Below, one piece after another: positions 59,390 through 62,235 of a DNA stretch of 64,000 nucleotides (position 1 is the first letter of the stretch; the number at the start of each line of letters is the position of its first letter). The DNA comes from Flaccisagitta enflata (lineage: Eukaryota), in contig OZ231126.1 of NCBI GenBank assembly GCA_965153355.1, forward strand, positions 10,292,001 through 10,356,000, given 5' to 3'. Both the position numbers and the translations under genes were made by a program. A model generated the notes under the pieces. It was not told the origin of the DNA, did no database searches, and saw nothing but the letters and a program-made list of their open reading frames with translations.

Positions 59390-62235
59390 CATACATGCTT
59401 AACAAACCTGAGAATCCAAAAAAAGAGTAACGATACTACGTTGTAAAACGTATAAACGTATCGCTTCCGTCGTGTTAGCCTTCCACGTCACGTTCAAGCG
59501 GGCTTGGTTAAGCCTTTTCTGGGGAACTGTGTCGCTACATGGGTTCTTGGGGGCGCCGAAGGAAACTTTAAAGAAGCTGAACCCTGTTTTGAACCTGTAT
59601 AAATAAATAAATAGAAAACTTTTATTTTTCCATTCGATAGTTACAATAACGAAAGGATATATCTATTCAACTTGTATCAATACTTTCCTGCTTTTGTCAA
59701 TCCAAGATCCCAAATCTTCGAGGAGGAGGAGGAGGAGGAGGAGGAGGAGGAGGAGAAAAGAAATAAAAAATTAGAAAAAATTGCAATCATAATTTTTACT
59801 CAGCAAACTACTCATTATATACGCGCATTTTTTGGTAACTGTTTGATCGTACCCGTGTACTGCGGCATGTCACTGTAGAGATTGGCGAACGCTCGATTGA
59901 ATTTTGATTTAGACGACCAATCAGCATCAAGCTTTAGACAAGGGAAACGAAGGTTATCCAGATCAAACCTATTGAGAGCATGTGGTCTAAATTAAGCAAA
60001 CGATTAGCTTTGGGGAGGAGCTTTAAAGCAAACACATCAAGTCAACAATAATGCCTAACGCAACGTCAATAACCAGATGTCATCCACATCCATGGGGGTG
60101 AAGTTAAAGACAGACGTCGCAAATGATGAAATTGCAGCGGTATTTGTAGTCATGGCGATGACGCAGATTTCAGGGAGGAATTCACCGCTGAAGCAGTCCT
60201 CTTTTCGCCAGTGGGTCGAATTGGTCGGGATGATGAATTCACGAGCGCTGGTGTGATAATAAGTGTAGCAGACTGGACTTTGCTGGAGACGACGTTCCAT
60301 AGTGAGTAATAAATCGCTATGAACATGTACCTGTACAGGATGAAAAAACTATAAAGTAGCATGGCTAATCTTTCGCTATGGCAAGGACAGGCTCACGCTT
60401 AAATACCTTACATACCCGAGGTACAATTAGTTTCACATTGGAGATTTCAAACTTGAAGTTTGCCGAGGGTACCGCACTTCTCATACAAGCCGTTGGCGCG
60501 GCCAGCTCGTACTCCAGCGACAGACTAATCATAGGAATCTAACAAAACAGAAACACATCCATAAATAAACCAATTAATCTATTTTTCATTTAACAAGAGA
60601 GCAAAAATTTCATAAACTCACTAGATATTTTTTTTGCTGTAGGAAACCATGAAATGGTGGGGCGCGTAGATAATACAGCGCAGATTCTGCGGTATTTTCT
60701 CCTCTTTTTGACAGTCCACTAGGAGTTTGGATGCTAACATTCGACATGTCTTTCTCATCATACCTTAAAATCAAGGATAAAAAAAGGGTCAATGAAAACA
60801 TTTCATCGAGATTTACCCGATGTGGGTGAAATTTATCAGTATGAATAAACATTACCATCCCCAAAGTTCGAGCAACGATTTCCGCGCCTCCCTACAAAGA
60901 AAAGAGTAAAATCACATGTAGTGGCAATCAATCAATGTGTTTTTCAAGAATCAATAACAGGCAGGAACCCAGCCCTTGAAGGCCGCAAGCGTACCTTTGG
61001 TACCACATCGTTAAAAAGGCCACGGAATAGATAGGGTACAACCCATTGCAGTTTGAGATGCTCTCGTTATTGAGCTTTATATTGACATTCTTGAAAACGC
61101 AGAATCCTGAAAAAAAATATATCAATACCGGTGTTAAAACCACCATCAATTCGTTCGCACTCAACCCTGTGTTTGTTTATTCACCTGGTAATTGGTCAAA
61201 CTGGACTCCGAGAAACGCATTGGCGCCCACACTAGATGGCCTGTGTGGGGTGAGGAGATCTGGCGTCGTGAGCGCCCGGGAGGAGCGAGGGTCGATTCGT
61301 CGCCTTTTCTTTCTTGGTCGTCGCACATTATTGTCTTCGTCGTCTTCGTCATTCTCGCTAGTCGTGTCGCTTAAGTCCTCTTCATCGTCGTCATCATCCT
61401 CCTCGTCATCGTCTCTCCTTCGTTTACGCTGAGTTCCAGCTCTTCCCTCCGCTGGGAACACCGTTGCGCGGGGATCGATTCGTACCTTTTTCTTCGGTTG
61501 TTGCGCGTCATCGCTGTCCTCGTCTTCGTCAACGCTGCTCGTTTCGCTGCTCGTTTTACTGCTCGTTTCACTCTCGTCGTCGTCGTCTCTCCCTCGCTTG
61601 CGTTTAATCGCGCCCCCTCGCTGCGTGATCGTCGACACCGCGGGAAGGGACGAAGATGACGGATATCCGGGTGCCAAAACCGACGGTCTTGTCCCGCACG
61701 TGTATGGATTATTCAGACGATTTAGTCTCTCTCGCTCCCGAAAGTAATTGCTTGATGAACAAACGCCGGTACTGGTCAAGGTCGATGGGCGCGAACCCGA
61801 TCCGCGACCAGTCGTGTTTGTGAGAGTGTAGGCGGGGGTCGACAATGCTGTAGTTGTAAAGTTAACGGCTGGGATGTCCGCTCCCGTGCTGGAATATCAG
61901 ATATTAAAGACTTAATTGTATAATTCAACTAACAGCACAAGATATAAATAGTATGAAATATCTCCAATTGTCAATGGATAAGTATACCTGGTCACGATTT
62001 TTAAAGAAAATTCGAGACAAATTTCTCTGAGATCCACAAGCGTGTTTTGAGGCTCGACTTGAATGGTAAAGCTTTTAGTGTTGCTGGTAATCGGCAGCGA
62101 TGGATAAAACGGCACAGGGGAAATATGATCGATACTGAAATCACGTTTCGGTACGCTCCACAAATCAAAACGCTCCGAGATGCATGTTTCGCTAGAGTCG
62201 ACGTAGACCGTCGCGGGATCGTGTATTCCGCTCAT
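59257..62235 (-). CDS. MCP: Major capsid protein (double jelly-roll, Polinton PY/hexon-like), 11 exons, ~661 aa
   Basis: Exons: 62235-61988, 61888-61185, 61106-60995, 60891-60856, 60763-60622, 60538-60416, 60330-60074, 59968-59853, 59715-59688, 59594-59408, 59289-59257 (sum 1986 nt). The product follows the Polinton MCP pattern throughout: ERFDLWSVP, NIKLNNESIS..YP, GLSKR, QKKYL, FSGEFLP, FNF, GFSFF, LDSQRQVI. Confidence 0.88.

Follow-up and report, generated by a model that had tools for sequence, protein, structure and literature searches.

Why does the major capsid protein (MCP) gene of a Polinton-type element in the genome of Flaccisagitta enflata carry an open frame of about 215 codons at a site where its relatives have a short loop? 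The window analysed here is a stretch of 64,000 nucleotides (assembly GCA_965153355.1, contig OZ231126.1, forward-strand positions 10,292,001 to 10,356,000), and the positions below are counted from its first letter. It ends within an integrated element of the Polinton/adintovirus type; the host genome is rich in microsatellites (794 Mb, 9 contigs), and a second copy of the element, 92–94% identical, is located 100 Mb away. The initial annotation had placed a disordered insertion of about 220 residues in the first jelly-roll of the MCP, and had suggested a cleavable nuclear-import, scaffold or chaperone module. The genes concerned are as follows.

46793..52186, plus strand: PolB-type polymerase ORF, uninterrupted, 1797 codons; motifs read by eye from the ORF list
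58815..59435, minus strand: presumed adenain-type cysteine protease gene, directly downstream of the MCP gene; named from sequence and position
59257..62235, minus strand: whole MCP gene model, 11 exons, 661 codons, no internal stops
62286..63089, minus strand: basic protein gene, directly upstream of the MCP gene; 253 amino acids counted from the first Met
minus strand: penton-sized ORF, read by eye from the ORF list

As judged from its sequence, the element is a Polinton/Maverick of the adintovirus type: it encodes a double jelly-roll (DJR) MCP, and the ORF found immediately beyond the right end of the window (L024:2-1198) matches an rve integrase (PF00665, E 3.2e-6, with 27.7 bits below the curated cut-off of 32.6). 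The animal Polinton, Maverick and adintovirus loci described in the available text of PMC8502044 and PMC8097293 resemble it in the double jelly-roll core of the MCP (hexon), found by profile, and in the neighbouring genes, here an integrase, a putative PolB, a presumed protease and a basic core gene. A basic core protein gene is also read by eye from the ORF list on the minus strand of this element. The assignment of the polymerase ORF (46793..52186) to protein-primed family B comes from motifs recognised by eye, and a Pfam search with it gave no match. The ORF at 58815–59435, which we take to be adenain-type, likewise has no Pfam match; its His and Cys motifs were recognised by eye, and its position is conserved in other families. 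No Walker A motif of a packaging ATPase was found in the long frames of window positions 30001–64000 or of L024, a search that an intron-split gene would escape, and the comparison of window positions 30001–47000 with L024 gave no convincing pair of the terminal inverted repeats that, with a 6-bp target duplication, mark such elements. The basic protein directly upstream of the MCP, presumably pVI/cupiennin-like, has the C-terminus SIFD in five families and overlaps or abuts the MCP start (window 62286–63089, and in L046, L049, L052 and L038). Left of the aligned part of the element, minus-strand ORFs at 39266–41012 resemble a signal peptide followed by a T/S/P-rich mucin-like stalk and a transmembrane segment.

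The exon boundaries of the MCP gene were set by homology, not by RNA. All of the following are on the minus strand.

62235-61988, 61888-61185, 61106-60995, 60891-60856, 60763-60622, 60538-60416: MCP exons 1–6
60330-60074, 59968-59853, 59715-59688, 59594-59408, 59289-59257: MCP exons 7–11
61185..61888: MCP exon 2, 704 nt, flanked by GT-AG introns of 99 nt and 78 nt
61889..61987: MCP intron 1, 99 nt
61219..61863: D1-E1 loop insertion in the MCP, about 215 codons
61746-61723: YFRERERL, inside the insertion
61629-61612: ITQRGG, putative adenain-type protease site
61605-61588: KRKRGR, inside the insertion
61497-61474: PKKKVRID, classical monopartite motif of the nuclear localisation signal (NLS) type
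61428-61414: RKRRR, inside the insertion
61320-61291: RPRKKRRRID, second NLS-type motif

The splice sites of this model are canonical at nine of ten donors and at all ten acceptors. The donor of exon 9 (window 59687) is non-canonical in both genomic copies, and in copy B the exon 6 acceptor is non-canonical as well; the exon 9 site is either a tolerated non-GT donor, a break shared by the copies or a misplaced boundary.

The minus-strand frame at 61896–61177 stays open for 239 codons, which bears out the open frame noted in the initial annotation. Because the first seven codons of exon 2 (DIPA...) and the last 11 (AFLGVQFDQLP) correspond to the short loop seen in L038 and other relatives, the insertion proper extends from about 61863 to 61219, which narrows the boundaries of 61200..61870 given earlier; every motif named at that time is present. 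The span between the strand D and strand E anchors is 244 residues in the window MCP, as compared to a mode of 27; in typical relatives, the D-E loop itself has only a few residues. The insertion has an S/T/G-rich first third, followed by two units, each consisting of a basic cluster, an acidic tract and a basic cluster ending in ID, and its net charge is about −6. The two charged units look duplicated by eye, and we rejected an internal duplication on a BLASTP E value of 1.9 and DNA repeats only 61–71% alike. In Pfam, exon 2 gave a compositional match below the cut-off and the full MCPs gave no family, while word-indexed protein searches with exon 2 and exon 1 as queries found nothing.

Where does the insertion lie in the capsid protein fold? 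The exons of the window gene align to homologues that are predicted to fold as double jelly-rolls, and by this route the gene encodes a DJR MCP. L053, a natural intronless short-loop MCP of this genome, has a predicted double jelly-roll structure (pLDDT 83.5), which matches the DJR capsids of Sputnik (E 4e-15), PBCV-1 (Z 24.2, rmsd 3.4, 337 residues aligned) and adenovirus hexons (Z 15–17). Among Atlas models, the nearest to these MCPs are DJR-like proteins of 407–449 residues. Counted from DSSP, strand D of L053 comprises residues 64–80 and strand E residues 113–120. The model of P0075, built with 102 sequences, has the same strands, and between them residues 81–364 form a D-E loop mostly with pLDDT below 50, apart from a basic helix at 288–320. 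The two homologue models thereby place the insertion in the D1-E1 loop of the first jelly-roll, and both the disorder and the jelly-roll assigned to it in the initial annotation agree with these predictions. The D-E and F-G loops form the outer towers of the DJR fold, according to the accessible part of PMC2671561. Because the D-E loops face outward there, the loop of the window MCP would also face outward, a placement taken from that account. The long-loop MCPs show that jelly-roll 1 of the DJR fold tolerates up to about 270 extra residues.

Is the insertion retained in the protein? The alternative is that most of exon 2 is spliced out, through an alternative acceptor or as an exitron, to give an MCP of normal length, so that the long form would be a minor product or not made at all. 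Splicing from the exon 1 donor to the AG at codon 215 of exon 2, which is in phase, would restore a loop of normal length, and the insertion of L049 is flanked by a GT/AG pair that is likewise in phase. In a crude splice model, trained on 15 donors and 13 acceptors chosen by homology, 12 of the 13 intron acceptors score from 4.7 to 14.7, and one genuine-looking acceptor of a homology-defined intron scores −4.4, so that weak acceptors do exist in these genes. The AG at codon 215, however, scores −10.1 (−7.9 in copy B), and its use would lose the conserved DIPA. Among the AGs in the last 45 codons of all five insertion segments, none exceeds −1.3, and L046 lacks a usable acceptor (best −6.7). 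The insertion segments are also unlike introns in composition and length, with a T fraction of 0.15–0.20 over 465–702 nt, as compared to 0.33–0.51 over 78–128 nt in 12 introns. Base shuffles of the window insertion stay open across the frame in two of 5000 cases, and the same test on open frames of 138–212 codons in four families gave 0–2 of 5000. In L046, L049 and L052, the insertion runs on from strand D, with no intron at that place. We consider it highly improbable that splicing removes the insertion.

The comparison of the two element copies points in the same direction. The insertion is open in both (212 codons scored in copy A, 208 in copy B), with gaps of 3 and 9 nt between them, although such in-frame gaps are expected in triplet repeats regardless of coding. 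The pN/pS ratio of the insertion is 0.37, with 0.17 before TQRGG and 0.41 after it; the ratios of exon 1 (0.30) and exon 3 (0.13) are derived from very few changes. Synonymous codons account for 16 of the 30 single-change codons, where an unchanged mutation spectrum would predict 10.5 (P=0.029). DNA identity between the copies is 95.1% in the insertion, 95.8% in the other exons and 93.7% in the introns, a small contrast. The selection signals between the copies are therefore modest. Elsewhere, one copy, L051 (of L043/L051), has a frameshift inside the loop. One related RNA run, of which about 6% was scanned, yielded no usable reads: seven partial low-complexity reads fell on the window copy and none on L046. 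Taken as a whole, the long loop is very probably retained coding sequence, which would thus be present in the mRNA.

Is the long loop peculiar to this gene? With exon 1 as the query, 24 matches were obtained in the genome, which holds at least nine divergent Polinton MCP families, ranging from intronless multi-copy to intron-rich low-copy (contigs C1, C2, C4, C5, C6, C7, C8 and C9). Besides the window family, four divergent families (L033-35, L036-37, L043 and L044) have a long charged insertion at the same site, contiguous with strand D in three of them, and four other families of the genome have short loops. Among 1.84 billion representatives, a profile search found 5026 matches, of which 150 were examined; among the matches listed, seven library proteins aligned as two separate stretches, and each of the seven has an insertion at this site. 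P0075 (717 residues) and P0192/P0193 (619 residues) are encoded in a single frame that starts at Met, crosses the insertion and continues to the C-terminus of the MCP, and such full-length relatives further argue against splicing. Since several library predictions continue into intron-like tails, the library gene caller seemingly does not splice. The scan of metagenome contigs with P0075 confirmed none of 277 stretches.

In total, 159 sequences, including matches listed from the profile search, were collected, seven were dropped as fragments or unanchored, and 152 were scored. The D-to-E span is 24–65 residues in 140 of these and 108–300 in the remaining 12, proportions that do not estimate a frequency, because the profile was seeded with long-loop families and five of the 12 are seeds. 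The long-loop MCPs share 22–57% identity in their cores. In a core tree (46 sequences, 185 columns, loop excluded; a quick tree of 78 rows was also built), they fall into three groups, namely seven including the window gene (support 100/98), four (88/85), and P0055, which stands among short-loop MCPs (85/81). None of the 200 bootstrap trees unites all of the long loops, while the AU test does not reject a single origin (P=0.059); the tree allows two to three separate gains of the long loop. The feature that emerges is an outer loop, predicted to be disordered and rich in NLS-type motifs, which recurs in some of the animal Polinton MCPs.

What, then, is the function of the basic motifs? The classical NLS consensus is K-K/R-X-K/R, as given in the accessible part of PMC10807245. 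The pattern K[KR]x[KR] occurs in all 12 long loops, with 51 motifs as compared to 7.4 in shuffles, and the window loop has six matches as compared to 0.22. The bipartite pattern is found in eight of the 12 long loops and in none of the 74 full-length short-loop MCPs, of which 26 have K[KR]x[KR] somewhere; it is absent from the window loop, in which the linkers are about 30 residues. Simple shuffles overstate the clustering, and ORFs elsewhere in the element likewise have more motifs than their shuffles (PolB N-terminus, 3 vs 0.62; ORF403, 6 vs 0.94). For this reason, we compared the tails of the motifs against control ORFs. A basic cluster is followed by a hydrophobic and an acidic residue in 11 of 42 cases in the loops, whereas 19 control ORFs have one such case among 64 (Fisher P=1.3e-4), for a pattern chosen after viewing the sequences. 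A hydrophobic residue plus an acidic one also forms the tail of the c-Myc NLS.

A different explanation is that the loop is retained as a nearly neutral, charged, low-complexity expansion in a permissive surface loop, and that its NLS-like appearance is a by-product of K/R runs. In its favour, the loops are mostly unalignable (z from −0.3 to 2.9 over block shuffles for the window loop against the 11 others) and their spans range from 108 to 300 residues. Similar D/E/Q and K/R tracts occur in other proteins of the element, the host genome is abundant in simple repeats, and the two to three separate gains permitted by the tree also fit. Furthermore, the four long-loop families measured have retained the pVI-like basic protein, in a longer form (231–269 vs 133–206 residues); the loop may thus belong to a general expansion of charged low-complexity sequence. 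Against drift stand the enrichment of motif tails over control ORFs and the synonymous excess between the two copies, and basic clusters are present in all 12 long loops of whatever origin, while loops of 49–65 residues have none. The loop of the P0051 cluster (10 rows) is hypervariable, yet its basic block does not vary: variable sites number 19 of 101 in the loop, five of 279 in the core and none of 16 in the basic cluster. The P0043 cluster does not have this contrast (3 of 32 basic sites variable, 7 of 170 for the rest), and the P0082 tally was left out for its two misaligned fragments. On balance, we regard drift as rather unlikely.

Could the element's protease cut the loop? By analogy with the MCP of mavirus, a member of a related virus group, whose C-terminal domain has a predicted NLS and is cleaved at GG|X sites (accessible part of PMC6048507), the loop might be a maturation module cleaved by the adenain-type protease. 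The protease gene directly downstream of the MCP suits this idea, and TQRG[GS] recurs in three different ORFs of the element, namely the MCP loop, a position near the PolB N-terminus and an ORF to the right of the window; at the level of sequence, this recurrence is consistent with a protease site. However, QxG[GS] occurs in only two of the 12 long loops, and (L/I/M)xGG or xGxG also in two of the 12. Because the window loop has a single site, a cut at TQRGG would nick the loop and not release it, leaving the basic/acidic part on strand E, and a packaged protease would need access to the outer loop. Among the 12 loops, we found no mavirus-type set of multiple conserved GG|X or GX|G sites that would free the segment. 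In mavirus, according to the same source, the protease removes a segment at the end of the protein that contains several conserved cut sites, whereas the window segment is internal. Cleavage as the general purpose of the loop is hence improbable in our estimation, and the cleavable module of the initial annotation did not hold as a general feature.

The loop might instead serve another role in assembly or toward the host: a condensate-forming charge brush, a chaperone for DNA or the core protein, or a shield of the particle surface. Its alternating acidic and basic blocks, the near-neutral net charge of the long loops (−6 to +25) and the low predicted order would suit such roles, as would RERL, which the loop (YFRERERL) shares with the C-terminal YYRERL of the core protein. 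This resemblance, pointed out in the initial annotation, is literally present, but is missing from all 11 of the other long loops, and the insert and the core protein share six four-mers, mostly K/R words, as compared to an average of about two for shuffled inserts. We rejected the core-protein echo as unconserved. The D-E loops also point away from the genome in the accessible account of the DJR fold (PMC2671561). We give these roles a slim chance; the import part of the earlier proposal gains from the enriched NLS-type motifs in all 12 loops, while its scaffold and chaperone parts found no support.

We therefore propose, with some reserve but as the probable reading, that the loop is a retained, predicted-disordered, outward-facing segment whose basic motifs would act as importin-alpha signals carrying the MCP into the nucleus. 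The loop would stay in the mRNA, and the double jelly-roll core is predicted to fold normally around it. Then, the loop would project from the tower side of the capsomer, and importin-alpha would bind the basic clusters and import newly made capsomers for nuclear assembly; the same signals could possibly also guide incoming particles. The remainder of the loop would be a spacer that drifts freely and grows by triplet slippage and short duplications. In the window family only, the element's protease might nick the loop at TQRGG. In adenovirus, hexon trimers enter the nucleus together with protein VI, as described in the available part of PMC12090768, unlike an MCP with signals of its own, as proposed here. 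Since a pVI-like protein persists in the long-loop families, the loop would supplement such an import adaptor and not replace it. A more tentative extension, for which we claim a minor likelihood, is that in this lineage the outer D-E loop evolved, possibly repeatedly, into a disordered brush of importin-alpha signals by which capsomers and perhaps particles engage the import machinery with neither adaptor nor uncoating. If this were true, capsomers or particles would reach nuclear import directly from the capsid surface.

How does this loop compare with known insertions? The hexon towers of adenovirus, with their hypervariable regions, and the 190-residue D-E insertion in jelly-roll 2 of mimivirus resemble it as large outer insertions of the D-E type, variable in the hexon case (accessible parts of PMC2671561 and PMC12517501). 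The window loop differs from these tower insertions in that it is of low complexity, predicted to be disordered nearly throughout and packed with NLS-type motifs. Our literature searches returned no title or abstract describing such an NLS-rich D-E loop in a Maverick MCP. The available portions of PMC8502044, PMC8097293 and 10.64898/2026.10.13.758929 make no mention of such an insertion, and hexons with long loops may be present in the sequence files of PMC8502044. At the time of PMC8097293, no Maverick particles had yet been seen, according to the part available. A signal-bearing loop kept across MCPs with only 22–57% core identity is hard to reconcile with a dead or purely transposing gene, and suggests nuclear assembly. 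We know of no test of the route by which Maverick capsid proteins enter the nucleus. Long, intron-split MCPs of this kind escape searches based on ORFs and length.

The introns themselves are a lesser novelty, because introners in dinoflagellate Polinton-like elements are already in print (PMC11957031, in its accessible part). Intact vertebrate Mavericks have intronless ORFs, as described in the available text of PMC8097293, in contrast to the window MCP gene with its ten introns; the 1797-codon PolB ORF of the same element has none. Near the D-E loop, the introns occupy different positions in each family (L046, L049, L052 and the window gene). Intron 1, found in both genomic copies, is 89% identical, nearly end to end, to the terminal 100 nt of a retroelement present in many copies in the host (38 of the 40 matches). 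This retroelement encodes an N-terminal GIY-YIG domain (Penelope-like) and has direct terminal repeats about 5.3 kb apart, and intron 1 was likely gained from a truncated Penelope-like insertion, as judged by this match. Intron 7 (59969-60073), which has the weakest acceptor, is 93% identical to a 100-nt segment found at two places on contig C4 with unrelated flanks; the segment has 5-nt inverted ends, and may be a small intron-making element.
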